A DNA stretch of 64,000 nucleotides. Origin: Eledone cirrhosa (lineage: Eukaryota). Positions 17,300 to 64,000 of this stretch are shown in pieces (the stretch's first letter is position 1; each line of letters starts with the position of its first letter). The translations under genes were made by a program, and so were the position numbers. Location: NCBI GenBank assembly GCA_964016885.1, contig OZ024740.1, positions 52,576,001 to 52,640,000 on the forward strand, written 5' to 3'. The notes under the pieces are model-generated. The model was not told the origin of the DNA. It made no database searches and saw only the letters and a program-made list of their open reading frames with translations.

Positions 17300-18975
17300 C
17301 AAAGATCTCGGTCTAGTGACATTGTCTTAGAGAGGTGCAAGTGTGTAAGGTCGGAATTTATCAAATCGTCCCAGGTTTTTCTGAGTCTACCTACTCCGTA
17401 ACTACCATCAATTTTGATCGCCCTGCACTTTTTTTTATACAGCTGTCGTCTTTCATGCGCATCACGTGACCATACTAACGTAGTCTTCGCTCAAATAAAC
17501 AGCATCTGATCCCTCTTATTCCTGATTTCTCACTTAGTTCATTTATGCTTTGCCGTTCACTATATTACTATTACACATCCAACGGAGCATGCATGCTTCG
17601 TTCCTTTCCAGTCTGCGCAGGTCCTGTGCACGATAAGTCCCATTTCCATGTAGCATTGCTGTTCGTATACAGGCATCATACAATCTGCCTTTCATTTTCA
17701 AAGAGAAACCTTTTGTGGCCAACAGCGGTATAAGCTCTCTGAACTTTTTCCATTCCGTTCTGACTCTGGCTACTGTACTTTCAGAGCACCCTCCACCACT
17801 GCCGATTTTGTCACCCAAGTAACGGAAAGTGTCCACTATTTCTATAGAACCATCTGGGCAATAGAAGGAGCTAGTATCCTGTGGGCACTTGCTACTTATT
17901 GCACCTGAGCATCGGCCACATATAAAATCTACTTTCTTAGATAGTTTACTTGTAATCCCACTACATCTTTTATGTACCGATAGTTTGCATTTGGGACATA
18001 AAATGGAATTTCTGCCTACTCCTTTCCTACACACTGAGCATGGCCATTTCCCTGAGGGTACCTGTGCCCTATTTTCCTTTCTACAAACTAGAACTTTAAT
18101 ATTAGACAAGTTAACTTTAAGGCCTTTTGATTCTAGGCCATGCTTCCATATTTGGAATTTCTTCTCTAGTTCAGCCATAGATTCAGCTATGAGAGTTAGA
18201 TTATCTGCGTATAGAAGTTCCCATGGGCAGACGGTCTTAAACTCCTCTGTTATAGCCTGAAGGGCAATAATAAATAGGCGGGGGCTAAGGACAGAGCCTT
18301 GATGAACACCAACTTTTACACTAAATTCTTCACAATATTCATTGTTAATTCTAACCTTACTGACTGTTTCTTTATACATAGCTTGTATAGCTGTCACAAG
18401 CCATTCATCTACACCTAGTTTTCTAAGAGCCCACCAGATAATGGAGTGGGGTACTCTGTCAAAAGTTTTCTCCAGGTCTACAAAAGCTAAGTAGAGGGGT
18501 TTACTTTTAGCTAGGTACTTCTCCTGTAGTTGTCGTACAAGGAAAAGAGCGTCTGTGGTACTTTTACCTGACACAAACCCAAACTGCATTTCATCTAGAT
18601 CAATTCGCTCTCTGATTAGTTGCGCTATAACTCTTTCTGTGACCTTCATGACCTGGTCAACTAACTTAATGCCTCTATAGTTTCCCCTATCTAGAGCATC
18701 CCCTTTACCCTTGTAGCAGTTAATGATGATGCTGCTACGCCAGTCTTTTGGTATGACCCCATTCTGTATTACTTGGTTAACTATACGGGTGACCATTCCA
18801 GATGCCTTCAACATCTCAGCAACTATCTCCGAAGGCCTGGCTGCCTTGCCTGTCTTCATATCTTTGATTTCCTTACTTATTATACTACCTTTAACTTGCA
18901 CCGCTGATCCTTCTATTGGATCGATTTGGGGCAGACTATCTTTTTCCCATTTATTCTCCTCATTTAATAGTCTAT
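17300..18975 (-). mobile_element. RTE-clade LINE, 5'-truncated; RT ORF 17543-18901
   Basis: KGKGDALDRGNYRGIKL, QFGF..STTDA, AFVDLEKTFDRVP, GVHQGSVLSP, LLYADNL (second catalytic D mutated), Cys-rich insert CSVC..CPKC..HKRC..CGRC, FRYLG. Confidence 0.95.
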
Positions 18976-19329
18976 AGGTTCATATATGCATTTATTCTGA
19001 ATTACACTATATTAGTGCTATTGTTAATTAATACTAGCCAGTGAAGTCTGCAATATATGTATTAGCCTTCAAGAATAATTTGTAAAATCTATATGAATAT
19101 ATTATTTTTCATACCTCAGCTTCTGAGTGCAAGTAAGCAAGTGCTGATGAACTGAAATGACAGCGAAATACATGCATCCACCCACACCAATGCTGAACTA
19201 GCTTTGATATGATTACAGCTTAAAATACTCACAACAAATGTAAATGTATGTTTATTATACATAAACATTTTGAATATGGGCTCATATCATCCTCATTGTC
19301 ATCATTATACATCTGCTTTTCCATGCTTG

Positions 19330-24049: not shown

Positions 24050-24600
24050 TTATATAGAAAATGCAACTGTACAAAAATAAAGAACATCAAATCTGGAACA
24101 TTTTTTGGTCACAGCAACATTGAATTTTGGAATTAATTCAATTGAGTGGTCATTTGAGTCATTTCTAAAATATGCCACCAGTATTTCTGAAAAGTTACTT
24201 CACATTGATAAGTTGTGTAAAAATGGTGCTGACCAGAAAAAAAAACATCCAGGTCATTTGGTTCAACAATTCTTGATCTTCAGAATATATAATAACAGTA
24301 GAAATAAGCTTTATCTCAGGTGTTCCAATGATTGTAGTGCAGTGACATTGATACAAATAGTTCAGCAAGGTGTTATGTCAGCAACTACATTGATTGCTGA
24401 CAAATGATGGGAATATTACTGACTAGCTTCACTGAATTATGCACATCTGACCATAAATCCTTCCCATGGTGTCAATGATCCTAAAACTAGTGCATGTACA
24501 ATGTTGAAGCTTTCTAACAATGGATGAAAAAGCCATTAAAAAGAATACATAGCAATTAGGGTAAAATAAAGTGAACTAGGATAAATACCTATTTAGGAAT
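24050..24600 (+). pseudogene. Decayed Merlin/IS1595 (ISXO2-like) transposase
   Basis: SAVTLIQIVQQGVMSATTLIADK*WEYY*LASLNYAHLTINPSHGVNDPKTSACT matches LxxIIxxxVxPGTTIxSDxWxxYxxLxxxxYxHxTVNHSxxFVDPxTGAHT. Confidence 0.7.
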
Positions 24601-24926: not shown

Positions 24927-25592
24927 TTACTTTGCTTTTACATAACGTTTATAGCGGTGAATTAGTTTATCTGTATCAGCAACAGTAGGCTTCACACACT
25001 CCCTGTCAGAACAAGCAGTGAGCCACTCCTGGTAACGAGGATACCAATCAGTATCAGATGGCATTTCAAAATTTTTAAAGTGTTTTAACACTCCTAATCT
25101 TTGCATCCATGGAAAAAGCATAATATCAACATATGAAAATGTGTCCCCCATGAAAAACTTTCCAGTTGGGGACATGGCTTTCACAAAAACTCCAACATTT
25201 TCAACAAAAGATTTCTGTACTTCATCCAGCTTATCAGGCTCTGATTTCAGAATAGAAAGAAATAATGGAATTATTTTAGTTGTAGCATAGTCACCCCAGA
25301 TGCGACCCAGAGCTTTGTCAAAAGGTTTTTCCATCATAATTTTAGGATTTTGTGGCCAAACATCATCAATGTATTCCATACATACAGCTGATTCATAAAT
25401 AACTTTATCATCATGTATCAGCACTGGCACCAAGCCTCTTGGATTCAATCTTAAAAATTCTTCAGTTTTGTTGTAAGGGTCAATTTCTTCATATCTAAAA
25501 GGAATTCCTTTCTCCAAGAGAGCAATCCAGAGTCTTTGAGCAAATGGGCAGTACCAGGCACTCATAAAACGAAGTTTAGTACTATCAGACAT
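24927..25592 (-). CDS. Glutathione S-transferase, omega-class-like (221 aa, single coding exon)
   Basis: Active site WYCPFAQR, NPRGLVPVL (cis-Pro), ESAVCMEYIDD, C-terminal FFMGDTFSYVDIMLFPW. Intact ORF; splice acceptor TTCTTCTTCTAG ends at 25608, 15 nt before the ATG. Confidence 0.93.
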   Translation of the reverse strand: MSDSTKLRFMSAWYCPFAQRLWIALLEKGIPFRYEEIDPYNKTEEFLRLNPRGLVPVLIHDDKVIYESAVCMEYIDDVWPQNPKIMMEKPFDKALGRIWGDYATTKIIPLFLSILKSEPDKLDEVQKSFVENVGVFVKAMSPTGKFFMGDTFSYVDIMLFPWMQRLGVLKHFKNFEMPSDTDWYPRYQEWLTACSDRECVKPTVADTDKLIHRYKRYVKAK

Positions 25593-25775
25593 ATTTAAAC
25601 AGAATACCTAGAAGAAGAAAAAAAATGATTAAATATGTATCCAGAAAATATTGACAAATCCTATCCTTAACAGACAAGCTACTAAGAGTGGCTTTACATG
25701 TTAACTTATCCTGCAAGAATGAGTAATCTCAAATCACATCCTACTGTCTAAAAAAAATAGACACTATAAACAGCC

Positions 25776-39619: not shown

Positions 39620-42150
39620 AAGGGCAAATGAGATGCACTAGACAGAGGAAATTATAGAGATATCAAGTTAATGGACCAGGTCATGTAAGTTACAGAAAGA
39701 GTTATTGCATAACTAATTTAGGATAGAATTAACAAAGACGAGATTTAGTTTGACTTTATGCCGGGTACAGGTACTATAGATGACCTCTTCCTTGTGAGAA
39801 ATATCTAACTAAGGAGAAATATCTAACTAAGAATAAGCCCCTCTACCTAGCGTTTGTTGATCTGGAAAAAGCTTTTGACAGTTCCCCACTTCAGAATCGT
39901 GGGCTCATAGGGGAAACTAGTGGTAGAGGAATAGCTAGTAAGGGTAGTACAAACCATGTACAGAGGTGCAGTAGTAAGGTAAGAGTCAACAATGAATATA
40001 TCGTGACGAATTTAGTGTGCAGGTGGGGTCCACCAAGGGTCTGCCTTCAGGCCTCTCCTGTTTATTTTTGTCTTTCAGACCATAACAAAGGAGCTTAAAA
40101 CTGATTGCTCATAGGAACTCTTATATGCCAATGATCTAGTCATCTTAGCTGAAGCTGCTGCAGAACAAGAACAAAAAAATTCTAAGCATGGAATCAAAAT
40201 GCTTCAGAGTCAACCTAGCAAAGACCAAAGTCCTGATAAATAAAAAAGAAAACAAGGCCCTGATTCCTTTAGGGAAATGGTCTTCACAGCCCCACCTTCA
40301 AATGAAAAGTGCTGGTAGTAATATGTTGTTCATGTGCTTTGCACAGGATCATGGTAAAATCGTTAATGCCAGATATAAAAACGGTAAAGTTTTAGTAAAT
40401 TTTAAATTTAATTTCATGTGTGCTTTGTGTTGATTTTTTGGGGGGATGGGGTGGGGGTGGGGGTTGTTTATTGCTATTAGTAAAACTTCCTGATTTTTTG
40501 GGGGGAGGGATTCTATATAGAATTGTAGAGTTGTCAGATAATATTAAATATATGGACTCTAGGGTGTTTGTTGGTGATCATGGTGGTGCTGAATTCTGCA
40601 AACATTAATTCTATTTCTTGCTGGAATTAGTTCTACTGAGTTTTTTAAAAGTCTATGTCTTCATTTATATGTGAGTGTGTTCTAATAATTGTGAGTTAGG
40701 AAATCATGTGTTATATATTTGTGGTAGCTAGCTGTATTCAATAGAAAGAAATGCTTGATGAGTAGTTGTACTTAGCTTGGTGAGATATTCAGGTGTGTTG
40801 GTGTATTGTTAAGGATGTAAAGGAAGTTTAGTTGTGATATTATTGTGACACTTCTAGTGTTGATGGGTTTATTTCTTACTATACAAATTTTTGTTGTCAT
40901 TGTCTTGTGTTATGTTCTTTGAGAACTAACTCTACAAATTGATTTTGATTACTTATAATTGCTTATAATTATGTTCACCCTGGCATATGCATGTATATAA
41001 TTAAATTACTACATTAGTTACCCACCTAAAATATGAGTCTTCATTCCTATGGAAAATTTCATTATTATCATTATAGGTACCTGTATTGTCTGCTGAATGG
41101 GCTAAATATCCTCAAATTTACCAGATTGAATAAAGAATATATACTCATGAATATATAGATTACAGTTACCTAAGTGATTGACAATCTACACAAGTGATAT
41201 TGACAGGACATGGCTGAAAATTAAGAGAAAATTGCGACAAAAACACGTATAGCACAGAATTATTCCAGTTATATTTATGTGGAGGTCTTGTTTCATGAAT
41301 ATTGATAAATTTACTGTGTCAATTTCTTCTATAGCGAAGAATTTAGTGTACAGGTTGGGGTCCATCATGACTCAGTTCTTAGCCCTCTCCTGTTTAAAGG
41401 AGTAGGTAGAAATTCCCTCTTATGTCCCAAATGCAAACTGTGGGTACACAAGAGAAGTAGTGGGGTCTCAGGCAGGCTACCAAAGAACGCAGGTTTTACA
41501 TGTGGTCAGTGCACAGGGGCAGTAAGTATCAAGAGCTCGCAGGATACAATCTCCTTAAAATGCCCAGAGAGCTCTGTAGAAGTAGTAGATTGTCTGTGTT
41601 ACCTGGGTGACCAAATTAACAGTGGAGGGGGGGGGGTGTTCCAAAAGCACAGTAGCAAGAGTGAGAACAGATTGAAGAAAGTTCAGGGAGTTACTACTGC
41701 TGCTAACTACAAAAGGTTTTTCCCTCAAAATGAAAGGCAGACTACATGGTGCATGTATACAAACAATGTTGCACGGTAGCGAGACCTGAGCACTGTGTGC
41801 AGAGGACCTGCAAAGATTAGAAAGAAATGAAGCTTCCATGCTTCGATGGATGTGCAATAATAATATACATGAATGGCAATGCATAAATGAACTGCATGAG
41901 AAATTAGGCATAAGAGAGATCAGATGCAGTGTGCAGAAGAGGAGATTGTGTTGGTATGGACATGTGTTACATGTGAAAGATGACAGCTGTATAAAAAGGT
42001 GCAGAACGCTAAAAGTCGATGGAGTGGGCAGGCCTAGGAGGACTTAGGATGAAGTGATAAAAGCTGACCCTGCAAAATTGCACCTCTCTAAGGTGATGAC
42101 ACAGGACCGTGATCTCTAGCACGTTGCAGTAATACAGAAGACTCGTCTTC
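39620..42150 (+). mobile_element. Degenerate RTE LINE fragments (39620-40285 and 41330-42150)
   Basis: PLYLAFVDLEKAFD, VNLAKTKVLI..GKW, LERNEASMLRWMCN..RRLCWYGHV..GRPRRT. Confidence 0.85.
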
Positions 42151-45532: not shown

Positions 45533-48500
45533 TCTGTATATATATAAAAATGTAGTTTTCTGTATGTTTGTGTGTGTGGACAATTTTTAATGAGGGCTCA
45601 TATATTCTAAACCATTCATGCGATTTCTTTGAAATTTTTTACAGAGTTTCTCCTTGCACAAAACTTGTACATGATCTACAAAGGCTTTCAAAAATCGATA
45701 TTGGGGCCTTTGGAGACATTAAAAAAGTTTCGGTTTTTTGTGTCAATTTTCGTGATTAAGTAAGACAAGAGTTATCTTTCGTCAATATTTCTTGATTAAG
45801 TAAGATAAGAGTTATCTTTCGTCAATACAATAGGAACTCATTTTTGATGTTGTCGAAAATTTTGTTTGGGGATTTTGATTATTACAATTCGGCTCATTCG
45901 GATTTTACTTTACTCTTTGTACTTGAAACAAAAGGTTTTACTGTTGTCAAAAAAATTTATACCTAGACTGGATTTCTGTTGTTACATGTGAAAAGTGCAA
46001 ACGATTTCCTTGAGCTAGTGCTGGACTCAAACTGGTCACAAGTAGTCACCTCTCCAACAAGAGGTGACAACACTTTGGACCTGATCTTCACCACTACTCC
46101 TGAAGTGGTTATAAGTTGTACTACTGAGGAACCTCTAGGCGACTCTGATCATGCTATGATCATTGCCAATCTGGCTCTTGCGGACAGCAACAAAAACCAG
46201 AACCATCTCCAGTCTGCTTGCTTTGATTGGAAGAAAGCAGATTGGAATTTGTACTGCACTGAGCTACAGCGCCCAAACTGGCATGAGTTCTATAACTCTG
46301 GAGATGTGAACACTATACTCCAGAGCATCCTGGATTCAATATAGATAGCGTGTGCAGCATCGGTGGCACGTAAGCAGAAAAAAACCCACCCCAAAAGTGC
46401 AATTTGGGAAACTTCAGCGGTCCGACTTGCCAGGAAAGAACGTCGGAACACTGAACGGGAATATAAACTGCATAAATCAGATGCCAACAGAAAAAAGCGG
46501 AATAAATCTTCCAACCATCTCAAGCAAGTGACAAAAAAGGCAATGCTTGAATTTGAACAGTGCATAGCAACCAATCCTGACAGTAAAGTGTTCTGGAAAT
46601 ATGTTCATTCAAAGCAGAGACCTCACTCTCCAGTTGGTCCTCTTCGCAATCCCCACATAAACCAGATCACTGACGATCCTAAATAATGCGCAGAACTCAT
46701 TGCTGAGTGCTATGCAAGCATTTTTACTGTTGAAAACCAGAATGTACCATCTCCACCATCAAATTCCATAACAACTGTCGAATTTACACCTGTTATGTTG
46801 CGACGTCACCTTAAGAATAAGCGCAACTATGCCTCCCCTGGTCTTGATGGTGTTACATATCTGCTTTTCAAACGTGGCGGGTACTTCTTTTTGCATCAGC
46901 TTTCCTTCTTCTTTCAATACTGTCTCAACAATGGTGCTACTCCGGGGCAGTGGAAAACTGCCAGTGTCATTCCCCTGTTTAAAAAGGGCGACCGCACATC
47001 ACCTGTCAACTATCGTCCAGTCAGTCTTACTAGTTATATTGCCAAACTGATGGAATCCTGTGTCTGAGAAACACTTTGGAACTTCTGGAGCTCTCACAGC
47101 CTCATCTGGCCCTCCAGCTGCTGTGATCAGCTTATCGAGTTCCTTGAAGACATTACCCGGATCACTGACAGCGGCTCATGGGTGAATATTGTTTACCTTT
47201 ACTTCGCTAAGGCTTTTAATTCTGTGCCTCACAAAAGACTTATGGCGAAACTCTCTGCAATCGGTGTGAGGGATGATCTTTTTAACTGGTTGAAATCCTT
47301 CATTCTCAGCCGAAAAGCGGTAGTCACGGTTCTAGGACAGCATTCTTCACCATATGAGATGTCATCTGGTGTACCACAAGGATCTGTTCTTGGTCCCCTT
47401 TTGTTTGTGGCATATATTAATGACATAGATGCCAACTTAAAGAATGCCACGGTACTGAAATATGCAGATGACATCAAGCTGTACCTTGAAATCAAAAGGA
47501 CTGATCCTGAAATCTACAACTCTTTCCTACAATCAGACCTGGACACAATGCAGCAATGGATCACAGACTGGCAACTGAAGCTGGCTGTGGACAAGTGTAC
47601 TACCATGCATTTTGGGAGGAGAAATCCAGTGTCCACATACTCCCCCCACAACACTGATATCAAGAAGTCCTCTTGTGAACGTGACCTGGGCATTACTGTC
47701 AGCAGCGATTTGCGTTGGACAAAGCATGTCTCTAAGATAGTCAAAAAGGCCGAAGGTGTTTTGGCATCACTCAGCAAGACCTTTGTTAGCCGCTCTGCAG
47801 CCATCTATTTAAAGCTGTATACAGCTATGGTACGACCACACTTGGAATTCGCATCATCAGTCTGGAACCCCTATCTTGCTCAGAACATTGACCTCCTGGA
47901 AACTGTTCAGAGACGTGCAACCAAGCACATACCCTCCATCAGACACCTATCAAACTCTGAACGCCTTACTTCCCTGGGCATGGATTCATTGAAGCTCCGA
48001 TGTCTGGCAATGGACTTGGTAAACACCCACAAAGTTATTAACCATCTCGCCAACAACAATCCCAAGCACTTTTTTTATCTCCATGTGTCTAACACACGTG
48101 GACATGCCTACAAAGTCAGAAAACAGCACAGCTCCCATGACTTTCGGAAACATTTTTTCAAGCTTAGAGTTGCTGAAGCATGGAACAAACTGCCTGCGTC
48201 AGTTGTTAGCTGTCGAGACACTGCATCCTTTAAAACCCTCATGCTTCCCGAAATTCGCCAAAACTACACTTGATGTACCCCTTCCATACACATGCACACA
48301 TGTATATATCATGACTCATGCACTGTTCATTTTCCTGACGTTTGTGCATTACCCTATGTACTATACATACACTTTTTGATGAGTTGTAGTGCACCTGAGC
48401 ACTGTACACAATATTTTCATTATTATTATTATTATAACGGATGACACCGAGCTCACATATTAATTATTTCGCTGGAATTGTGCCTTAGGTTTTCATGTTT

Positions 48501-49497: not shown

Positions 49498-51388
49498 TAT
49501 ATATATATATGATGGCTGTGAAGTATATCTACATTTGGGTTTTCCACCCAATATGTCTCTTTGAAGTCTCTGCACCTATACTTTTTGATCCCCTCTCATC
49601 TTCTTTACTCACACTCACTATCTCTTATATTCATCATACTGCCCATGTAATCAGGGATGTCATTGGAGCTGCCTAATCCTCTTCTTCCCATCAGATTCTC
49701 CTATTCACTGCACCATGCTGTCCATGTAACTAAAAATGTCTTTAGTTCTGTCTATTCAATCCCATCCCTGCTGCCACTAAACTCACCAGTCTATTTCATT
49801 CCCTACCCACTATTATGATGATTACATATGATCATATTGCATTAGATCTGTATATATCCCATACATCCTACCATCATCTTCTCTGTGCAACCAACCATCA
49901 TTCCCTCTCACAAAGACAACTTCACATTATCATCCATCACTCCTTCCAACCACTCATCACGTTCTCTCTATCTCCAGCAAACATGCATTACTATCTCAAC
50001 ATTGCATCTCCGTTATACTCTCAGTCCCTTATCTCATTAGTCTCCTTTCTATTACTCCCACCAATACTGCCTCTCTCTCTCATGTCTCTGTCTTCCCTCA
50101 CTCCATTGTCTCTCTCATCATACTCCTGCATACCTCATTTATTTTCTCTAGGCCGTCTTCTGTCATTACTCTTTCTGCTATCACCTCTTGGTCATGGAAA
50201 TCCTTTGCAGCATGTTCGGAAGTAAAATTAGCTGGTAGCACACGAAACCCCGAGGGTAAAAGAAATGGTAAAAAAAACCAGGGCGGGGTGGCAGTTCTCT
50301 GCTGGTCCCCCTCCCCTTTTCGGGGAAAAAGTTCTTTGCGGCATATTAGGAGATAAGTTTAATTGAGAACACAAGAAAAAAAAAACGAAGAAAAACAAAA
50401 TCATTATTTCCCACTGAAATCGGTGGAGATGTTTTCCTATAATAATACCAAAGTTCCTTCTAAAGTTGACGGAATTTCAGATAAATTCCTAATTTCCAAG
50501 TACAAGCTTTCCTTACTTATCTCCTGTCTGTTGAATGCTTTTCAATTTTCACGTAAAATAGATGTTTGTGGGTTTAACATCGTGATAAACGTCGACAGCC
50601 TTCCCGATATCTTCCTGAGTGTTTGTGCATAATATATATATAGATGTGAGTTGTGTCCCTTTCCATAAAAAAAATAACACTTGCCAGACAACCTACAGGA
50701 GTCGGTTGATATACCATATTTGGCGGCTGAAAAGGTACCTCAGTTTTGTCGAGTCTTTCGTTGAAACACCAGTTTCCATTAACTCAAACATCGAGCTTTT
50801 GTTTATAAAACAGACTGGTTTTCTAAAACATTTTCGGGCGAAGAAAAATGCATCTATTAAGCTGTCAAACACGGTAATCGACTATAAATCTCTCTCTCTC
50901 TATATATATAAAATATTATGTATTTTTTTACCTAAACATCGTGTGGTTTTTTTTCTCTAAGACAGCTACTTCATATCAAAACGATATTTTGGGTTGTGTT
51001 GAATAAATTATTAAAACACAATAGAATAGTAACTTTAATTTTATTTTGTATAGTGAATTATTTGAATTGATATTCTAATATTTGAACTTAATACTTGCAA
51101 GGCAGACAGGTGATATGCTATCATGAAGGTAACGAATTTAAATGACATTCCAATTTCTATAGTGAAACGACAGTTGTATAATTATGAAGGGGAATTTAAC
51201 AACAGTTATTTTATACGAACAAAATAAAAGAACCTGCAATTAGATTTCAATAAGATTATTAATGAAAAGCTATGTTTTTGTTTTACAACGGAAAACATTT
51301 TCTACGAAACTAACACTTTCGTCGGAGTATAGGTTTCGTATAAAGTCTGTGTGTTCCCCCTCTCCCTCGTTGTTTTATTACTATCACA

Positions 51389-54300
51389 ATGTCACGCCGC
51401 CGGGGACCAAGTCCTAAAATGATAAGCACTGATATTGTTGAAGACGAAAAAATTAGGCATGAGATTTGGACATTTTCTGATCTCTTTCAACAAACTTCCA
51501 CAAATGATAAAGCAATTGCGTGGTTAGCGAAATATAAGCTTATAAGCAATTCTGTTACATGCCCCACTTGTGGGAACCCATGTACAGTTAACGGATACAA
51601 GAAAGGTATTGATGGAAAACGATGGAGATGCCCTAAACATAACTATTGTCGGTCAATCCGCAAGGGATCATTTTTCGAGAATAGCCGTCTGTCGCTGACA
51701 ACATTCATATGGCTTATGTATATGTGGTCAAGAGAATATTTTCATTCTGAGATAGCTCATGAGACAAACGTCAGTAAAAAGTCAACGATTGATCTCTTTT
51801 GTCTCATCCGGGAATTACTGGAACGTTTCCTGGAAGACCACCCGACTGAATTAGGACTCGACCCTCCTGAGATTGGAGGGTTCGATTTACAGACAGGTGA
51901 ACCAAAAGTCGTTGTAATAGACGCAACCACAAATTTCAAATCTACACCCCATGAAAAAAAGCAAATGAAAAGATTCTGTGTTTTTGGTGGAATTGAACAT
52001 GAATCTGAGAAATGTTTTCTGGTCCCTATTGAGCATCAAAATAAAGACGCTTTCGAAGCTGCAATTATCCGGTGGATTTTACCAGGTATAGTTAATAAAA
52101 TCCGTAACTTTCTTTTATCTGTAGCGTCTTCAGTCTATTTTCTTTAAATTCAACTTTACGAGCACCTTCCTTTATTTCTCTTTTTTTCCCCACTTTCTTC
52201 CATATTTCAATTGAGATTATAGTGTCTCTACGCTACATTTTCATATTTGTAGCTCTGTGTCTGAGTTAGAACCCAGTGTTGGCGAAACTTCCACTATTGG
52301 CAATAAAAACATGTTTACTCTAAGTCCCTCATCGGTGTTTTCAAAATATTTGGTTAATCTCATTTTAATTTTCATATGCATCGAACACAAATGAGGAAAC
52401 AAATCAAAACAAATAGTTGACAGTTCGATTGATTTCAATTTTGGTGCCTGTGTTAAAAATATGTCATGCACAATGCAACTACAGCTTTCCAACCGAAACC
52501 CTATCACTAACCAATAATATGTAGAATAAATTGACCGAAATTCATAGTATATTGATATATACGCTTTAGTGCATGCATAAAACCTAAATTTAATCTATTT
52601 GTTTTGAAAATTTTCTATTTCAGACCTTAAAGCCCGGGGTTTCCGAATTTTTCGTTTATTGCACTTAAATGTTGTTTACTGCAGTGAATCAACAACAAGC
52701 ACGTGTAGAATATCATACTACATATAAATTCGTTATTTCAAGTATTAGTAGAAAATTTGCTCAACCCCAGCTTTGGTTGTTTGCTGGTATTTCAACAGTA
52801 AGTAAACGTAGTGATGAGTCCAAAATATCCAAAATATATTTCCAAGACAAAAGTTGAAGTTTAGCATCTGTCCTTAATTGATTTTCAGAAGTTGAAAAAA
52901 TAAAACAATAGTTAAAGGAAATAAATTTGCCCCCCCCCCCCCCCCCCCGCGTACTTTTTAATATTGTTATCATTAATAAACAGAAATATGGTGACATCTG
53001 TGCTACTAAAATGATTAAAATAATATTAGTCATTAAACTACTGTTGTATTTTCCTCCCATATAAGTATTTCTAATTAAATTTTAAGAAATATAATTTAAT
53101 CTAAAGTACATAATTTGTGTGTGAAGAGGAATGCAAAAGTTGTTTTTGAAACTGAATTGTTTGAAATACAGGTATGATTTTGAAGACGAAAGATTATTTT
53201 ACAAAATAAAAATAAACTTTCAACAAGCATGAGACAGCTAATTAAAGTTTAAGTATCTGAGAAAACTTGTTAGTATAATGTAATTTTTCAGTAATTTCAG
53301 TAATTTTTGAGATGAGTATTTTTAAAAATAATATGCATGTATGTAATATATGAAGCATGCATCAGTGGCCTAATGGATGAGAATGTTACAGGCCTTCTGT
53401 GTTATGGCTTAGTTAAAAAAAGGAAGGGGGATATCTATGACTATTTTCAGGACCATCAAAATTAGTAGGAGGAATGAAGTAAGTTATCATCAGACCAGAG
53501 ACCAGACCCGGATGATTGCAACAGAGTGGATTCTATTAAAAGCACACTTGGACCAGGTCATTTCACTTTATTTTCTTCTTGACCCTTTGGAGTCATGGTA
53601 GCATAGTTTATCCAGCATTACTTGGGCAAATACAGCCTTCCAGAGCCTTTCCCTCTCCTGGCTTCATGGGCCAGATAGTGGAGTTAAACCAGGCGACAGA
53701 GATAGTTTACTATATAAAACGGGACAATTTCTCCAACATGCTACATATTACTTCTGTCTACCAAATTTCACTCACAATGTTGTGGTCAGTCTGTGGTTAT
53801 TTTTCTCTCTGAAGATGATATCAACGGTTTGTAAAATAATACTTGTTTCTACTTTAGGCACAAGGCCAGCAATTACCCAGTGCATTACTGGTACTTTATT
53901 TTATCGACCCCGTAAGGATGAAAGGCAAAGTCAACCTCGGCGGGATTAATACTACCAGATATCTAGTAGTAAAATCGTTTTTGTGTATGTATTGTACAAT
54001 AGGACCTACCCTTATTTAGTAATTCAATTTTGGAGGATTTGCTTTGACCACCCTGTCATTTTTTTTTTTTTTTTTTTTTTTGCATACTGTATTCATTTGC
54101 ATCTGAAATATATTATAAAACAAATTAGAGAGCTTCTATGGGGCCTCAACATGCTGGAGATAGCAAATCACCATTTGACACCCAACTGTTTAAAAAAAAA
54201 ATACAAATACATTGGATGAGGTTGTCCTAGATTTCCAAAATGACAAAGGAGTCACAACTGAAACACCTTTGATAATTCTATAAAAAAAAGTTGAGCCATA

Positions 54301-55345
54301 CATAACTGATTAAGCTTTAAAAGGTCAAGTATCAGTGAAAATAATTCACAACATTAGCAAGGATGTAAGATCATTTCGCTGCATTAAGCAAAACAGAACA
54401 AATATATATCTATTTCATCATCATCGTTTAACGTCCATTTTCCCTACTTGCAAGGGTTGAACATGTCTTCAGAGACTGGTCAGTATTCAAGCAAAGTTTC
54501 TGACCTCCAGATGAGCCAGACGCCCAATATATGATCATACTGAGAGCATTTTATCATTGCACCAACACTAGGGAAGTCCTCCCAGCCCTTTGACAAGATT
54601 CTTATGGCTAGATGTCCTTCCTGTCCCCAACCACTTTACAGAGTGTACTGGGTGTGTTTATAATGTAGTTCATTAACAGGACAGGTTGTCAACAAGAAAT
54701 ACTTTAACACACACCACTATACTTGAAAGGCTTATGAAGTGAAGACAATGAATGGAAGCCATGACTGAAGTTGAATACAATTGCTATTTTAGAATATAGA
54801 ATCATTTCACTATGTTGACATTTACACTCACAGTTAGTCATACCTTTCTGCAAAAAAACTACTGCTAACATGATTTAATATTTTCCCCCATTCTTAATGT
54901 AGTCACTATAATGTAGTGGTAAGCCAAGTTCAGGATTAGAATTTCATCCTCCATCAAAACAATTTTCATTCTTGCACTCTTGGAAATAGCATGAATATCA
55001 CAACCTTTCATTTCTCTTCTATAAATATAATAATTCATAACAGTTATTTTTTTTGTAGGTACCCATATTGTGTCTGATATATGGGCAGAATATCTTCAGA
55101 TTGACCAAATCGAACAAGGTATATATACTCAGGAATATTTAGATTATGATTATCCAGATGATACAGAAACACACACCAGAAATATAGAGAGAATGTGGTT
55201 GAGAGTAGAAAAGCATTTTCAACGAAAGCATAAAACATATTTATTTCAATCATTTCTAACAGAATTTATGTGGAGATCTCATTTTAAGAATAATGATAAA
55301 TTTGCTGCTCTAATTTATTGTATCAAACACTTATATAAAGTTTAA
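51389..55345 (+). CDS. Two-exon Merlin/ISXO2-like transposase-derived protein, 327 aa (exons 51389-52085 and 55059-55345)
   Basis: Zn ribbon CPTC..WRCPKHNYC, SIRKGSFFE, VVVIDAT, VFGGIE. Donor CCAG|GTATAG and acceptor TTTTTTTTGTAG|GT join in frame to give ILPGTHIVSDIWAEY..THTRNIERMW..FLTEFMWR (697+287=984 nt). Confidence 0.88.
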
Positions 55346-55744
55346 TAAAGTTAATATTGTATTTTTATTTGTAATTAAATATTAAGCTGAAACATCACAA
55401 TATTGAACTATGGTTTTTGGTAGAAATGCGTTGCACTTTAAATGAGTATAACATTCAACTGATTAGTATGGGGTGGGAACATAAGTCAGCAAGATGTGGG
55501 TCTCCAGCCCATTTGAAAAGTCAGTGACTCTGTTTGAGTACTGACTCAGTTTGTGATGACCTGTCGAACCCTATCTAATAGGGAAAACAGACGTTAAATG
55601 TGATGAGGATGTGAGTAGATAACGTACTTTGCTGGATTGAAATATTCCTCACTCTAACAACTTGAATATACTTTCACTCAATTATCTCCCCTACATTATG
55701 CTAGTTCACTCCGAAATTCCCTTCTAATACATTTACAGTTAGCA

Positions 55745-55817
55745 GCCCAAATATCTCAGTCAATAGAGCATGAGACTCTTAATCTCGGGGTCGTGGGTTC
55801 GTGCCCCACATTGGGTG
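55745..55817 (+). pseudogene. tRNA-Lys(CTT) pseudogene
   Basis: Near match to metazoan tRNA-Lys-CTT with intact anticodon arm GAGACTCTTAATCTC, but the D-loop GG is AA, the T-loop is TTCGTGC, G10 is T, and pair 7-66 is mismatched. Confidence 0.85.
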
Positions 55818-56598
55818 AATTCAGTTACACTTACAAATATCATCACCCTGGAACTGTATCTGTAAATTCATTGTTACATAGTGTCATGTTGATCTAGCCT
55901 GGGAGTTATGTTAACTGTATAAATGTCTGGAATACTAAAAGAGAATCAACCATAAAACAAAATCAAAGTATCATTAAATGGTTAAATGCAAGAAGATGGA
56001 ATTGCCTTAGCTGGGGAGATAGATAGTTTTGATATTGTCTCACCATACATGAATTCCATTATACCATCATTCTTGCATCATCATTTTTCATGTATTTGTG
56101 AAGATAAACGTTTCTGTTAGTAGGTTTTGTACAGAGAAATATCTCTATATAAAACAAGAGGAAAAGTTTAAAGAAAGTCAATTGGAAGGAAGGGAGCAAA
56201 ATGCCAGATGAAATATATTTCATTAGAGTACCAGAATAGGTCGGGTCTTAAGAAGTAAGCCTCGATAAAAATTCTGCTTGTCTCATAGTAAACAGTAGCT
56301 CATGCAATGATCATCAGTTTAATTAGATCACCTTGGCATCATGAACGCCAGTGGCTTTGCAGATGATCAATTATTAATTCGGCAATGGGTTGGCACAACT
56401 CCAGTTAGTGGAGAAATTTACGAGTATGTGGGTGTGGGGTGTCACATATATTCTAGCCGTTATAAAAAGCAAAATGAATGCTGTACCTTCTTAAGGGAAG
56501 ACTCAACAATCCTGCAAATCTAGTTGTTTTCACGTGTTTGCAAAGAGGATGCTGATTTCCTTTGTTAGCAATTGGATGTTTATCATCCATAGTCTTAT

Positions 56599-57299
56599 TC
56601 TATCTATATACTACTAAAATTCTGTGATTGCTTGCTTGTCTGTAATGTAATACAGTCAAAAGGGCGCATAATGTGAAAATACTTTGAAAGGAAGTTGCCC
56701 CTGAAATGGAATAAAACAAGTTTCGCGTAAATTGAAGCACGGGTTCCTGAGATATGGGGTTTTCTGGGTACCTTCATAAACGGATAGAGAGAGCTGGTGG
56801 TAGTTTTGTGTATATGTGTGTGTGTCTATGACCAGTGTATATAGATCACAGACACCCATATATATATATATACACACACGCATACATATATATATGTATA
56901 CAAGCACACACACATATATACATGCACACATGTATATATATGTAAGGGCCTTCCAGTTTCATTTAACATTATATACAGTCTGTGTATATTTTAATATTTT
57001 AAAAATATTTTGAAGTGAACATGACCCAATGGGTCACGGGTGACCTAGTATACTACTAAAACTCTGTGATTGTATGCTTGTCTGTAATTTAATACAGCCA
57101 AAATGGTGCATAATGGGAAAATACTTTGAAAGGAAGTTGCCCCTGAAATGGGAATACAATTGGAATAAAACAACTTTCACGTAAATTGGAGCATGGGTTT
57201 CCGAGATACAGGGTTTTTCCAGGTATCTTCATAAATAAAGAGAGAGAAAGAGATAGTGATTGTGAGAGAGTAGATTGAAAGAGAGAATATGTATACACG

Positions 57300-57334
<35 letters not shown>

Positions 57335-57426
57335 GGGCCTTCCAATTCCATTTCACATTATATACACGTCTGTATATTTTAATTATTTTTAAGTGAACAT
57401 GACCCATTGTGTCACAGGTGGTCTTG
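56599..57426 (+). mobile_element. Head-to-tail tandem of two non-autonomous Helitron units (56599-57048, 57049-57426)
   Basis: Both start (TCTA)TATACTACTAAAA.TCTGTGATTG. Unit 1 ends TGACCCAATGGGTCA hairpin..CCTAG; unit 2 ends in a degenerate TCTTG. Confidence 0.8.
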
Positions 57427-58675
57427 TCCTGAATAAAAAGCTACAAAAATCAATTATGAATACAATTAATGATCCATTGTTGAACTGATAAATGAATTTA
57501 TTCAATATTATTAAAAAGGAGTAACATTCATTACATCAGGAAGGACAATGTCACAGAGGAACATTAAATCGACTCACATTCCACACAGTTTCTTGTCAGT
57601 ATTTCTGTTGTGCAAGTAGTTTTTGTCAAGATATAGGATGAAGTCAAACAACTGGTAGCTCAGTTTCCACAGCAGTGATAAATGACAGCTCAAGATCTAC
57701 CATGTTTGGCCTCTATCAGTGCTATCCCTAGTTTGTCTCCAAGATTTTTAGCAATTGACTAATTGTTTTCCTGGTCACAAAAGGGAGATCTCTATCTGTA
57801 TTTACCATGGGTTGTGAAGAATACCTTGGAAGATGATAGACATGTTGGGAATGTACACATGTTGAAGCCTTTCCAAATTATGTCCATGGCAAATACAGCA
57901 ATGCCTCAGTCATTGACCAAGTGTAACAGGAACCTATCATATGCCTTGTATTGGTCCCTTCTTCCCCAAGTTTCACATAGGAAGATACTCAAGAGACTGA
58001 GGGCACACCCAGCTTGTATTAGTGTGCATACATTATGGAGCTCTGGAAGTTGCTCATCACCTAATTGCTTTTCTTAGTATGTTGCATCAAATAATATAGT
58101 TACATCTTCATGTATGACTTCTTTCAGTTAATGTATTGCATTGAACTTGGGGATTTTGTCATTGTCTTGCCCAAGTGGATCATGTAGTTTCTCCATAGTC
58201 ACTAAAATTATTTCTTTTAATACTTGCCTCATGTTTTCTACCAACAATGTCCATAGGTAATATTAATCATCCCTGTTTTGTAGTGTCTCAATCCTCTGTG
58301 AACTAATATTTTTTCACATTTGCCTTTAATTAAAGATACCATGGAACATAAACGTAGTATCACTGCAGGGTTAATCATTTTCTATTACACAGTTCACACT
58401 CCCCCATGCTAAATCATGTGACAAGCCATAACACCATTCTACCCTTTCCACTGCTTTGAATATTTCCACAATACTGCTAAGCAACAAAGATATTTAGCAA
58501 TTTCTTTATTGATTGCAGTAATGCACTGGGGTCGATATAATCGACTTTCCCCTCCCCCTTGTGCCTAAATCAGAAACCCAGATTGGCGGTATCCGTAGCG
58601 CATCGGACAATATGCTTTGTGGCATAGAGTTATAGCCCTTTCCGTTCTGAGTTCAAATCTCGCCGAGGTTAGCTA

Positions 58676-59005
58676 TGCCATCTGGTCTCTTCCAATCACT
58701 TCTAGGTAATCCAACCGGCTCCAGAGCTGAGGGATTATTTATCAGGTTCAGCTCGGTGTGGCAGGCGAAATGACCAGCATTCAGGTGGCAGGACAAGCCT
58801 TGTAGACCTGTGGAGTCCAGGGACCTACCACAGCGACATCTCAGACCCCCACAAAGGCTCCCACTGGAAGTGCAATGGAGATGCGGAGCTCGTCCTGACT
58901 GAGAAGGCCACCAATGTTGGTTACAGGCATGGCATCAATCCAGTCCCCCGAAAACCTTGCACTTGCAGAAAGTAAGTGGCACCTATAGACAGCATGTCCT
59001 GAAGC
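58676..59005 (-). mobile_element. CRE-like retrotransposon zinc-knuckle/RLE fragment
   Basis: SGDWIDAMPVTNIGGLLSQDELRISIAL..RCRCGRSLDSTGLQGLSC..CHTELN..LEPVGLPRSDWKRPDG. Confidence 0.8.
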
Positions 59006-59621
59006 ATGTGTTTAGTGGAATAATTTATGCTAATTAATATGTAGGTGACGTTTGTCTAAGTTTCTCGTATACTAATGATTTTTTTTTTAATGTGTAATTC
59101 ATGAACACCCATTGTAAACTTTTATATGCAAATCTCATGGTTTTATATAATAAAGGGATACTTTTCATCTCAAGTGCTTGTAGGGTTTTAGAGTGAGTGT
59201 CTGAGTTTTTCGATTGTTTGGCCATGTCAATCACCTTCATTTATGTCCGAATAACTTAAAAATAGCCTATAAAGCTGGCACATCTAGTTATGCGGTTTTA
59301 TAACGCTGTTTCGGTTAGTGTTGATATTTAGGAACTCAGCTGGAGCACTAACCAAGTATCGCTATATATTTAATTATAAAATGAAATAAATATCAGAAAT
59401 TCAAAACTTGATTTATTTCAAACATTCATAACGTATACTTAAAAATATATAACCCGACACATTTTCAGTTTTGGAAAAGCTTTCATTTTTGTGTTTGTGT
59501 GGCGGGGTCAGTTTCGCACAAGTTTTCAATTTTGTTGAGGATTTTTAATTCCTGATATCGTCTTTACTTTTATACGAAACTAACACTTAATTCAGAGTAT
59601 TAGTTTGTTGTTCCTCCTGCA

Positions 59622-60318
59622 ATGTCACGCGGAAGACCACCAAATCCTAAAATTATATGTACAGATATCGTTGATGACGAAAATATCAGGAAAGAGATTT
59701 GGACATTTTATGATCTTTTTAAAAAGACTTCCACAAATGATATGGCGATTGCGTGGTTGGCGAAATATAAGCTTATAAGCAATTCTGTTACGTGTCCTGT
59801 TTGTGGAGACCCATGTACAGTTAACGGCTACAAGAAAAGTATTGATGGAAAACGATGGAGATGTCCAAAGCATAACTACTGTCGATCTATCCGAAAAGGA
59901 TCCTTTTTTGAGAAAAGCCGCCTCTCGCTGACAACATTTATATTGCATATGTATATGTGGGCAAGAGAGTATTTACATTCTGAAATAGCCCACGAAACAA
60001 ACATCTGTTCGACGTCAACTATTGATCTCTTTTACCTCATCCGAGAATTACTGGAACGTTTCATCGAAGACCACCCAACAGAATTAGCTGACAACCCACC
60101 TGAGATTGGTGGGTTTGATTTACAGACAGGCGAACCAAAAGTCGTTGAAATAGATGTAAACAAATTTGTTAAATCTAAATGTAAGGATAAAAAACATGCA
60201 AAAGGATTTATGGTTTTTGGTGGGATTGAACGTGGAACTGAGAAATGTTTTCTGGTCCCTATTGAGTATCAAAATAAAGATGCTTTTGAAGCTGCAATTA
60301 TCCGGTGGATTTTACCAG
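59622..60318 (+). CDS. Exon 1 of second Merlin/ISXO2-like transposase-derived paralogue; exon 2 not found in the window
   Basis: Colinear with 51389-52085, same length (697 nt), same donor position CCAG|GTATGG; VVEIDVN..VFGGIERG. Confidence 0.88.
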
Positions 60319-61599
60319 GTATGGTTAATAAAATCGATGATTTTCATTCATTCATGTCATGCGGGTACCTTTCGTTATTTCTTCTTGTCTGTTGTTTTAA
60401 TGTCTCTTAATCTTTAATACATCTTTGCACTTATAGTTTGTAATGCTTTTTTTCTCTTGCGCCTAAAATTGTAATCACACCAGCATTTGTATTTTCTTAA
60501 ATTAGTTATACCTCAACCAAATGACCTAACTGCCTACCTCCCTATTTTCAACTTTCAATTTGAAAGAACATTAATTGATTTGTCACCACAGTGCTCAATG
60601 GGAGAAAAGCAGCGTAAATGCAGCACTGCTAGGTTGAAAACTGAGACAAGACTCATATATTAGTAAGAGATCTTTGTTATCGTTGTAATTACTTGCACGT
60701 GTACATAAGTGATATATTTATGAACTATTTTCCGAATTTATTTTAACCCAAATTAAATACTATATATGTGACAGAACGCAATAATTGACAAAAAGGCCCA
60801 GTATTTGCACATACCATTAAAGTGAAAGATATTTCTAAACAAAAACCGAAACGAAAACAATAGAACGTAATTAGTTTTTGTATGTATTTAGAATAGACCG
60901 TTACATGTTATGGAATGTATGAGGGGGGGGGGGCTCGCTTTAAGATTAGACAGAGGAAAATAAATTAAAGTGAAGGGTTTCCGACTGCATCAGTCAGTCA
61001 GTTGTGAGAGAACAGATTAGTATGGGAGAAGCAATAGCGAATTGATTTCAACGATATTTGTATAATGACTGGCGTAAAATAATTGTAAAGGTGAACATTT
61101 ACAACGAATAAGCTGGTTGCCATTCTGAGCTCAAATCCCGCCGAGGTTAACTTTGCTTTTCATCCTTACGGGGTCGATAAAATAAAGTACCAGTAATGCA
61201 CTAAGTAATTGTTGGCCTTGTGCCAAAAGTAGAAACAATTATTTTAATTCACTTTCATTTTCTAGTCTGCGATTTTACATGTCTAAAAATGAAATAATCT
61301 CCCCTCTTTCTTTATATATGTATATATATATATATAGTCGAAAAAATCTGGAAAAGATAAAGGATTCTCACCGAAGAGATCTCCGAGACCCCATTCCGTT
61401 TTCGGTGAAAAAAAGTTAATTGCGAGCATGTCGGTGGTCAGATTAGTTGAAAACTCGAAAAAAACCTAGATTTTCCCAACCTCGGAAATTTCTTATTATT
61501 CACCCACTTATTCCTGTGAGTAGAATAACATAACAAATATGTTTTAAATATATACATAAATAACATTACAAATGCTTAGATAACATTATAAATTGCTTC

Positions 61600-62405
61600 A
61601 GTTCGAATAACAGAGGCGGGAAGACACTTAAGAGTTACAGATAAACGCCTATCAGTCGTTTAAATTTATAGAAAACAATCCCTTTTCGATCCTTCATCAT
61701 TTTGTACTGTTGTGGAAAACGTTTAAGTGTTCCCCAGTTTACAAACCCACCATTCCAATGAGGAGTGGCTGTGTGAAAGAGCAATCCTTTCCCACCAAAA
61801 CATCACAGTGAATGCTATAAAAAAATCTCTCACAAATGATACCAGTCTCCATCTAGAAGAGGGATGTTTCTCACATGGTCAAATGTAGGTAGGTTATTCC
61901 AGGGTAGGAAGACCCTTCAAACTCTTCATATGTGACATTGTATATCCTGAAGTTCTGTAAATGTTTTATAATTTTTGTAGAATACATTTTTCCATTATTT
62001 TCATTTTGTATTATATATCCCCTTCTTTTCCGAAAACCGAATGAGTGGGTGAACCCTCGGATATTTCAGTGCGAATAACGGAAGCGGGAAGGGAGGGAGA
62101 CACTCGGAGTAACAGATAAGCACCTCTCAGCCATTTAAATTTATAGAAAAGCAATCCCTTGATACTGAAGGTTTTGATCAGTCATCATTTTGTACTGTTG
62201 TGGAAAGCGTTGTAAGCCTAAGTGTTTCCCAATTTACAAATCCACCATTCCAATGAGGAGTGGCTGTGTGAAAGAGCAATCCTTGCACCCCAAAATATCA
62301 ATAAATGCCATTAATCTCTCTCAAATGATCCTTGGAGGTATCCAGACCTATAAATTTATTGGTGCTAAAAACATTGTATATACTGAAGTTCTTAAAATGT
62401 TTTAA
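61600..62405. repeat. Diverged ~340 bp direct duplication (61600-61970 vs 62070-62405), unclassified
   Basis: Shared blocks such as TTTAAATTTATAGAAAA and CCACCATTCCAATGAGGAGTGGCTGTGTGAAAGAGCAATCCTT. Confidence 0.75.
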
Positions 62406-64000
62406 AATTATGCTATGCAATATTTAAATACCTTTTATTTAAAAGAAAACGGACATTACAACAGATGATAATAGGTGCCTTATGAATAGATTTGAACACA
62501 GCATGGGGCGAAAGCCGGGAGGATGCTAGCATATATATATAACGAAAAATTAACAAGTATTATGATTATAGCATTTAATAAATTTACGACCGTTTCGTTG
62601 AACTAACAAGAATATTAATTCCTGCAAGAATAAATCCTCCGAATTGATCATATACATATATTCATTTAAGTTTAGTGGTTCACCACTGGATAGAACTGGT
62701 CATTCTGTATAGTTAACCATGATATAAAAGTAGGAAAAGCACTCAACATTACGCAACTCATCCATCATTGATGTTGAATCCTGTGGGTGGTGCAGGAACG
62801 GAGTTAAATATTAGTTTCATATATATATCAACTGAATATGGCCTCCGATCTTTTATATATATGTACGTTTATGTAATTGTTTTGCAAGATTCTTTATGTG
62901 AAATCATTGTTCTATTTGGGGATGATCATTTTGCCAATAAAACAAACGCACTATTGACTTTCACTTCAACTTTATTATTACTAGTTATTGGTTATTTTAA
63001 AACATCTTAAAACACACCCTGCCTCATATGTAGATGACATGATACTCCCAAACCTCTCACCTTTCTATAGACACTCGTGTATATCTACCCTAACCCTACA
63101 TAAAGCACATAGAAACCTGACTGAAATAAATAAATAATTAAAACACACAAAATAGCACACCCTAAATCCACTATCTCCCTTCTTGCCAGCAATTACCCCA
63201 GTGTATTACTGGTACTTTATTTTATCGACTCCGTAAGGATGAAAGGCAAAGTTAACCTCGGCGGGATTTGAACTCAGAATATAAAGGACCATAACTCTAT
63301 ACTACAAAGCATGGTGTCTGACACTACTGATACTGCCAATCCACCATATTACATCAAATAATACTGATCAATACACATAAACATAAATATATGAGATACA
63401 CATCAAAAGAGAGCTCACAAAGAAGATATAATGTGGAAAGGAAAATGTCACCAACATACTAATGCCACATTTAGTCAATGGAAAGAAACAATAACAATGG
63501 TGCACAAACAGTACATTACATCTAGTATTGACAATGCTACTTATACCAAGAATCTAGTCTCTTCACAACAAACCAACTTAAAATAACTTGTACACAAAAC
63601 TGCACTCTATGCATACTCACTGGTTCTACACAGATCACAGGATATGTAAAGGCCATAGTTCATTGACACAGCAAACTTCAACCCATACAAGTCCTACTCC
63701 TACATGAAAAAAAATCACCTCTAAATGCTCAGACATATACAACTTGTCAGAACACTGCTATAACATCATCCCAAATTCATAATCTCTCTCACTCAGACCA
63801 GACACATATACACAGAAAATTGCTAGAACACCAATACCCTCAACAACCCTAAACACTGCTGGGATGCACTCAACCAAAAGTGAATACAGAAAAATAACAA
63901 CTGATGTCTTCTTACTGAGTTCACCTTGCTTACTTCTGCTGAGGCACCTCTAGAATCTGTGAGTGTACAGAAATATAGAGGATAGAGTGCAACATGTCTA

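Follow-up and report, generated by a model that had tools for sequence, protein, structure and literature searches.

The window analysed here, a stretch of 64,000 nucleotides (nt) from contig OZ024740.1 of the octopod Eledone cirrhosa, carries two neighbouring genes, g1 and g2, which encode proteins related to the transposases of Merlin DNA transposons and belong to a family of nine genes in this genome. We consider it very probable that the family has been domesticated from Merlin, as the original prediction proposed for the pair, because orthologues occur in three Octopus species, one intron is shared by 9/9 genes, terminal inverted repeats (TIRs) are found at none of the nine, and transposase motifs have been lost. 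Taken as a whole, our best reading, to which we give a probability of roughly 0.55, is of domesticated, likely non-transposing, dimeric DNA-binding regulators of the octopod host, likely binding a short word conserved upstream of each gene.

A family of nine two-exon genes

Exon 1 is 697 nt long in both g1 and g2, whose start codons lie 8,233 nt apart, and in each a GT donor splits the ILPG Gly codon after its first base. The spacing, the equal lengths and the shared phase-1 intron agree with the original prediction, but the two exons are not identical in sequence, matching at 583/697 nt (84%) and 185/232 amino acids. The join over an intron of about 3 kb proposed for g1 holds as a sequence prediction, with 2,973 nt removed, an AG acceptor at 55057-55058 and an uninterrupted frame of 327 amino acids, and exon 2 of g2, to be looked for beyond position 64000, was found at C1:52642959-52643245 behind a 6,640-nt intron, giving a protein also of 327 amino acids. 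The O. sinensis orthologue of g1 is represented in RefSeq by isoforms X1-X5, of which X3 switches sequence at the same exon boundary; RefSeq isoforms of this sort rest on transcripts, and they bear only indirectly on splicing in E. cirrhosa.

The ratio of nonsynonymous to synonymous substitution rates (dN/dS) between g1 and g2 is 0.22 for exon 1 (Fisher p 6e-13) and 0.27 for the full coding sequence. The 12 synonymous and 2 nonsynonymous differences reported earlier for 51569-51679 (omega 0.025) are counted exactly, though in a selected stretch. The introns had been said to stop aligning after about 20 nt; at the 5' end 17/20 and 28/40 nt are identical and similarity is gone beyond about 30-40 nt, so the fade is real if slightly later, but the final ~345 nt remain alignable at 91% identity. 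Because the intron ends align and dS is 0.09 in exon 2, compared with 0.52 in exon 1, the end of the intron, exon 2 and the start of the 3' untranslated region (UTR) are likely a recent gene-conversion tract. Within this tract (92% identity), 15 of the 18 differing codons lie in or near codons 280-306, a region in which g1 has the same helix sequence as its Octopus orthologue.

The genome was searched with each exon, the best 150 candidates were scored and neighbouring DNA was read, revealing nine intact two-exon genes of 320-330 amino acids at five loci spread over three contigs. The same nine headed the hit list when a divergent member was used as query. The tandem arrangement described at the window is therefore only part of the family's extent: g1, g2 and g3 lie at 52.63-52.68 Mb of C1 and g9 at 61.0 Mb of the same contig, g4, g7 and g8 at 148.90-148.92 Mb of C3 and g6 at 38.46 Mb, and g5 on C2. 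The intron interrupts all nine at the identical base, with canonical GT/AG ends throughout and lengths of 690-10,028 nt. Many dispersed near-identical copies, which would have spoken against domestication, were not seen; there are nine copies, with pairwise dS of 0.29-1.13, and broken copies and orphan exons are scattered among them. Terminal branches account for 85% of the length of the star-like gene tree, and each of them ends in an intact open reading frame (ORF); the flanks cannot be aligned apart from the upstream word. Pfam PF12762 (DDE_Tnp_IS1595) scores above its cut-off in 7/7 full-length Octopus family proteins (30-49 bits vs 27), while the exons of g1 scanned separately fall below it (exon 2, 15.6 bits).

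Among the fragments, an intact orphan exon 2 (L024, C1:52672670-52672955) is 97% identical to exon 2 of g3, and the nearest upstream exon 1 is broken; it could serve as an alternative last exon. At C2:318915347-318921007, g5 has a broken head-to-head duplicate ~0.6 kb upstream, at which the upstream word is still present. Complementary half exons on C1 and C3 raised the idea of a chromosome break splitting one gene, which was rejected, the halves being nearest to different paralogues and the C3 half abutting a fragment resembling a long interspersed nuclear element (LINE).

Living Merlin transposons and Octopus orthologues

Merlin transposons of the same genome served as controls, eight loci in detail and 20 weaker loci sampled out of 151 matches. 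Young Merlin transposons are intronless, with canonical motifs, an intact DDE triad and TIRs beginning GG, and one locus (L015) has a clear 9-bp target-site duplication (TSD), within the 8 or 9 bp expected of Merlin; they fit the definition of the superfamily in PMC8101967. Control copies differ by dS of only 0.03-0.17, and several Merlin lineages coexist in the genome. None of the examined Merlin loci that span the site has the family intron. TIR-like flanks were not found around g1 and g2, in keeping with the earlier failure to recognise any, and a search of up to 3 kb of flank (upstream, 1.9 kb for g6 and 1.4 kb for g9) found TIRs at 0/9 family genes. Internal inverted matches of 16-20 nt occur in only five of the nine, whereas the same test gave inverted repeats of at least 49 nt in 7/8 controls; a fixed TIR motif, being subfamily-specific, matched 4/8 controls.

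Family dN/dS lies between 0.18 and 0.47 in 36/36 pairs (median 0.29). The purifying selection noted in the original prediction is borne out, but its use as proof of domestication had to be rejected: a low ratio is not diagnostic because the value is no different for Merlin copies within this genome, in both pairwise and private-change tests. Broken family copies compared with the nearest intact gene give an uninformative 0.24-0.47.

A second, N-terminal-only family among the weaker hits was considered and rejected, the 20 sampled loci proving to be Merlin copies with no intron or derivatives with internal deletions, the majority having inverted repeats. Among these derivatives, L050-L055 and L059 have TIRs, and several copies keep an open frame of 160-196 amino acids comprising the zinc ribbon and helix-turn-helix (HTH) only; they are possible natural repressors. 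About 20 similar truncated copies are clustered at 19.2-23.8 Mb of the small contig C25 (L060, L061), likely carried within a larger amplified unit, and four copies (L056, L057, L058, L062) lie inside long fold-backs with arms of 0.9-1.9 kb, one of them a head-to-head two-copy palindrome.

Named proteins of O. vulgaris, O. sinensis and O. bimaculoides group within the family, which forms a single clade (support 1.0, stem 0.62, in a tree of 75 rows). Orthologue groups containing named Octopus proteins were recovered for g1 (support 100/98), g5 (91/96) and g9 (100/100), and g6 pairs with a contig-derived protein in a fourth; g2, g3, g4 and g7 group as a local expansion with weak support, and g8 stands without a partner. 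Exon 1 of g1 is 88% identical to its O. vulgaris orthologue, whereas identity between the orthologues of O. vulgaris and O. bimaculoides reaches 98%, so the species studied here is further from those two than they are from one another. In a profile search of 1.84 billion representatives that of the family, one cluster at 50% identity, scored 654 bits and the next protein 261. The protein collection, which includes Argonauta proteins, yielded no named member from squid, cuttlefish or Argonauta, though annotation masking or the 50% clustering could hide them. The expectation of orthologues is upheld for Octopus; as to synteny, a link to RPS10 is shared for the C3 cluster, which has this gene 39.5 kb downstream (148.9 Mb). 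RPS10 also adjoins the cluster in O. vulgaris, where CAI9726404, beside CAI9726405-6, is a chimeric gene model joining the g1 orthologue to RPS10.

At the window the available synteny marker is a glutathione S-transferase (GST) gene, a single omega/tau-like ORF at 24927-25607 (minus strand), 78% identical to tandem Octopus GSTs. In three Octopus species this neighbour is apparently on the same chromosome as the RPS10 cluster; it is ~470 accession numbers away from it in O. vulgaris, and therefore the window locus is not shown to be syntenic. Gene g1 has probably changed locus, which argues against a fully static picture, and, since its intron is retained and transposon ends are lacking, the move would have been a rearrangement or segmental duplication.

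Two Octopus gene models deserve mention. In O. sinensis, the isoforms of LOC115214512, which is orthologous to g1, suggest that exon 2 has been duplicated in tandem and is used alternatively. CAI9735743.1 of O. vulgaris fuses a family member to a C2H2 zinc-finger array; this is probably annotation read-through, and a real transposase-zinc-finger fusion would be notable.

Protein anatomy and the upstream word

The model of the O. vulgaris orthologue (predicted local distance difference test score, pLDDT, 82; predicted template modelling score 0.79) comprises N-terminal helices, a Cys-containing hairpin, HTH helices at residues 119-125 and 130-150, and an RNase H-like core. Fold searches, covering chiefly residues 164-311, liken the core to integrases and transposases (best Z 10.0, root-mean-square deviation 3.8, 141 residues aligned); no solved structure related by sequence was found, the ESM Atlas returned PF12762 clusters only, and the Pfam zinc-ribbon match to the Cys-containing segment is marginal.

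Comparison with 147 outside homologues highlights what has been lost. The family keeps 51 of the 77 columns on which 70% or more of them agree, including three zinc cysteines and the hydrophobic core, and 26 are lost or variable, 11 of these being retained in 0/28 family sequences and lying chiefly around the active site. All 28 lack the Glu that follows D178, four residues (R, Y, R, G) of the R-K-Y-x-R-G loop and the H-x-x-x-F-V segment that precedes the third acid, although these are present in 76-93% of outside homologues. The catalytic acids themselves persist more widely, with D178 in 26/28, D239 in 25/28 and an acid at the third position in 23/28. The triad is DDD in 16 sequences, DDN and DGD in three each, GDD and DDE in two each, and DDK and DDS in one each, compared with DDE in 86/116 complete outside homologues. 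A catalytic acid is lost in 9/28 and orthologues carry the same loss; the persistence of such orthologue groups argues that cutting is not the common function of the family.

Variability among paralogues is greatest at the beginning of the second HTH helix and in the zinc hairpin. At HTH residues 127-135 paralogue identity is 0.33, while orthologue pairs agree at 30/36 positions (expected 0.66, p 0.018); the corresponding values for the zinc hairpin are 0.36 and 39/48 (p 0.031), and with four segments pooled 180/223 positions are kept between orthologues, against 159 expected. Predicted DNA-contact segments may thus be paralogue-specific and kept between orthologues, a result that is only suggestive because the segments were picked with the alignment in view and few pairs were available. 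The highest dN/dS of any segment is 0.76, so that none exceeds 1.

Homodimer prediction for the O. vulgaris orthologue gave a score of 0.33 against a mark of 0.32, which is reached by 21/30 solved homodimers and 0/23 monomers of microbes and by 7/16 animal homodimers; the best of three controls scored 0.00. Runs agreed on at least 82% of contacts, with pLDDT of at least 71, and place the contacts at residues 28-37 and 108-126. The prediction, a narrow pass, lends support to the view that family proteins may act as dimers.

When the 170 nt ahead of each start codon are aligned, a single conserved island appears. The 10-mer TACGAAACTA is exact and on the sense strand in 9/9 genes (chance expectation 0.0009), ending 39-91 nt before the ATG, and it is also found at two broken family copies. 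A second copy occurs at six genes: g3, g5 and g7 have it inverted, g1 and g4 in degenerate form, and g9 in tandem. The word gives 16 matches in 10 proximal windows compared with 2 in 100 control windows. A 14-nt version has 16 matches genome-wide, nine of them at family loci. Since these sites concentrate at family loci and a 12-nt version is not enriched genome-wide, the word appears family-specific and evidently constrained; a general promoter element or repeat is not supported, four of the seven non-family 14-mer matches, those inspected, being lone sites without Merlin ORFs. Eight nt of the word are shared with a segment repeated in the TIRs of young Merlin elements. The word is likely a protein-binding site and possibly a relic transposase site; binding by the family proteins themselves we propose only tentatively, at well under even odds.

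Table 1. Features of the window, with positions counted from its first letter
Feature	Position	Strand	Remarks
Conserved non-coding 10-mer TACGAAACTA ahead of g1	51303..51312	+	Exact in 9/9 intact family genes
Upstream word, second inverted copy at g1	51330..51341	-	2 mismatches in 12
g1 exon 1, 697 nt (232 codons + 1 base)	51389..52085	+	N-terminal helices, zinc ribbon, HTH, first strands of RNase H-like core
Zinc-ribbon-like segment C58, C61, C81, H84	51560..51640	+	Cys in 28/28 family sequences; hairpin varies between paralogues
Predicted HTH, residues 119-150	51743..51838	+	Helices in O. vulgaris orthologue model; start of second helix paralogue-specific
D178 codon, first catalytic Asp position	51920..51922	+	Adjoining transposase Glu lost
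g1 phase-1 intron, 2,973 nt, GT-AG	52086..55058	+	Same position in 9/9 genes; not in Merlin transposons examined
Probable gene-conversion tract with g2 (intron end, exon 2, 3' UTR start)	54714..55380	+	92% identity; differences mostly in codons 280-302
g1 exon 2	55059..55345	+	D239 = 55076-55078, E276 = 55187-55189, stop; AATAAA 55344-55349 overlaps stop
Conserved non-coding 10-mer ahead of g2	59573..59582	+	Same word as g1
g2 exon 1, 697 nt	59622..60318	+	ORF and GT donor
g2 intron, first part (6,640 nt overall)	60319..64000	+	Exon 2 past window end
Degraded exon-2 relic of another family member	41075..41332	+	No exon-1 partner seen in window

Elsewhere in the window, a degraded piece of an unrelated Merlin transposase lineage lies at 24192-24500 (plus strand; 35% identity, E 4e-10). 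The ORFs at 45967-48273 (plus), 17543-18979 (minus) and 9567-10121 (minus) may, from their resemblance to such proteins, be broken LINE-like reverse-transcriptase/endonuclease frames and a Penelope-type GIY-YIG-like frame.

Origin and possible roles of the family

Domestication of transposases is well known for hAT, pogo, piggyBac, P and Transib elements. Some full transposases adopted by hosts, among them SETMAR, PGBD3/CSB-PGBD3 and PiggyMac with its partners, reportedly bind the ends of the parent element, and some are said to be catalytically dead; they are of mariner or piggyBac origin, and SETMAR and CSB-PGBD3 are said to be single fusion genes, which differ in this from the 327-residue proteins described here, without a fusion partner.

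Members of the family share with the Merlin superfamily (IS1016/IS1595-related) a length of ~325 amino acids, the domain order and 34-41% identity to its transposases, their C-terminal part most resembling one of the young Merlin families present in this genome. They differ in the missing TIRs (24-462 bp with terminal GG in the definition of Merlin given in PMC8101967), the one conserved intron, the few copies and the cross-species orthologues, as well as in a 7-residue insertion before the core, a 4-residue deletion, the loss of active-site motifs and a mostly DDD triad. In the literature searched, the only Merlin domestications are tentative ones from protists, putatively domesticated ORFs in Stentor, Symbiodinium, Perkinsela and Bodo (Lopes et al. 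2021, PMC8101967). These too are TIR-less preserved ORFs that have often lost DDE, with segmental duplication and some interspecies synteny, but the parts of that account drawn on here give no shared intron, orthologue tree or cis word, and its main text nowhere uses the term 'intron'. Four O. bimaculoides family members appear in its supplement, as domain hits only, among 191 sequences. Transposable element (TE)-derived factor families that are also expanded in Octopus (ZBED, CENPB/pogo, THAP, HTH-Psq, FLYWCH and FHY3; PMC10027918) likewise keep transposase DNA-binding domains and show lineage-specific duplication; they come from other superfamilies, Merlin, IS1595 and ISXO2 being unmentioned in the main text of that study, and here the whole transposase is kept. 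Two recently active Merlin families are recorded for O. vulgaris (PMC13282606), and the main text of 10.1101/2021.09.26.461848 names no Merlin domesticate. The original prediction knew of no such family in cephalopods, and we found no description of it in the literature searched, outside which lay subscription journals and Feschotte 2004.

That the genes are still selfish, an old intron-bearing Merlin lineage spreading without recognisable TIRs or functionless relics kept by duplication and conversion, appears very improbable. It would accommodate a dN/dS equal to that of transposon copies, the DDE of g1 and g2, the five loci on three contigs, the broken copies beside intact ones and the position of g1 away from the locus of its orthologues, yet with no TIRs at 9/9 genes there are no definable ends, the flanks are unalignable save for the upstream word, intact ORFs stand at the tips of long terminal branches, orthologue groups cross species and introns reach 10 kb. 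A domesticated nuclease or recombinase, its ancestral D-D-D site still cutting for the host and some paralogues serving as dead partners, is also improbable, if less so. PiggyMac-type systems reportedly provide a model of an active enzyme with dead partner paralogues, and the widely retained acids, the integrase-like fold and the strong constraint on the core would suit it; against it stand the motifs gone from 28/28 sequences, the persistence across species of orthologue groups with D-to-G or E-to-N/S changes, and the failure to find host target ends. Domesticated proteins might instead serve chiefly in host defence, repressing young Merlin by occupying TIRs or forming dead mixed dimers, with the word coupling expression to transposase level. 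The presence in this genome of young families in which DDE is intact and TIRs and a 9-bp TSD occur, the coexistence of several lineages, the differing DNA-contact segments of the paralogues, the 8 nt shared with the TIRs and the listing of TE repression among roles of co-opted transposases (PMC8101967) are consistent with this, but the near-identity of the O. vulgaris and O. bimaculoides orthologues and the lack of any segment with dN/dS above 1 are not the pattern of an arms race, and the TIR match is short and post hoc. We regard host defence as unlikely to be the main role, and lean, by a little, towards a non-catalytic DNA-binding regulator.

The genes could also be domesticated while the word is something else, an RNA or splicing signal (the branch point of a 5' UTR intron) or the site of an unrelated transcription factor. 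Most copies of the word have at their end a CTAAC resembling a branch point, and in 9/9 genes there is an AG 2-13 nt further on, but that spacing is variable, and the full second copies, inverted on either side of the main copy in g3, g5 and g7 and tandem in g9, better fit a double-stranded DNA site; we judge such an explanation the less probable one, without dismissing it. Comparably doubtful is the fullest version of the regulatory account, an octopod-specific transcription-factor family from one Merlin transposase whose paralogues were re-tuned to different words and cross-regulate through a relic TIR site in every promoter.

Several observations weigh against domesticated, dimeric DNA-binding regulators. 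Splicing in this species is a prediction from sequence, and expression a presumption. Merlin transposon copies have a median dN/dS of 0.30 (21 pairs), like the 0.29 of the family (36 pairs), and private changes give 0.295 for the family and 0.306 for transposons (Fisher p 1.0), although these controls are best-scoring, near-intact copies, biased toward low values. Orthologues were not found for 5/9 genes (g2, g3, g4, g7, g8), and g1 lies near GST on a different contig, its orthologues lying beside RPS10. Within the proteins, the most constrained part is the core (dN/dS 0.12; first strand 0.05), which fits a nuclease too, D-D-D survives in 16/28, and g1 and g2 are D-D-E, the sole two such cases, though likely by one secondary change since their Glu lies inside the converted tract. 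The contrast between paralogues and orthologues used post hoc segments, four non-independent pairs and 16 regions; it was non-significant for the helix after the third-position Glu (p 0.27), and region 91-118 scored equally well. The score for the dimer is marginal, since of three runs one gave 0.27, and may reflect likeness to transposases. Finally, the 12-nt word is not enriched genome-wide (396 matches vs 498 in controls), and the TIR match, itself post hoc, is equalled by 182/10,000 shuffles and 137/10,000 genomic 70-mers.

In our putative scheme for a family of domesticated regulators, one Merlin copy would have become fixed in an octopod ancestor, losing its ends and gaining an intron, and would then have multiplied through tandem and segmental duplication, accompanied by gene conversion and gene death. 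The zinc ribbon and HTH would keep reading DNA, with a preference differing per paralogue, and the RNase H-like core would act as a scaffold. The products would bind DNA as dimers and likely regulate transcription, that of their own genes included. The weakest step is the last, in which the word would be a relic transposase-binding site reused for auto- or cross-regulation.

Such a family would provide a multi-gene animal case of Merlin domestication with orthologues and a shared intron, in which the transposon relatives still living in the genome act as a built-in control, and the upstream word offers an immediate and cheap test of what the proteins bind. Because the genes are now annotated as uncharacterised or ISXO2-like and counted as transposon hits, an octopod-specific regulator family may be hiding in existing data. 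If the scheme is true, it would amount to a self-wired regulatory circuit, protein and site both derived from a single transposon, and to the first multi-gene domestication of Merlin in an animal.

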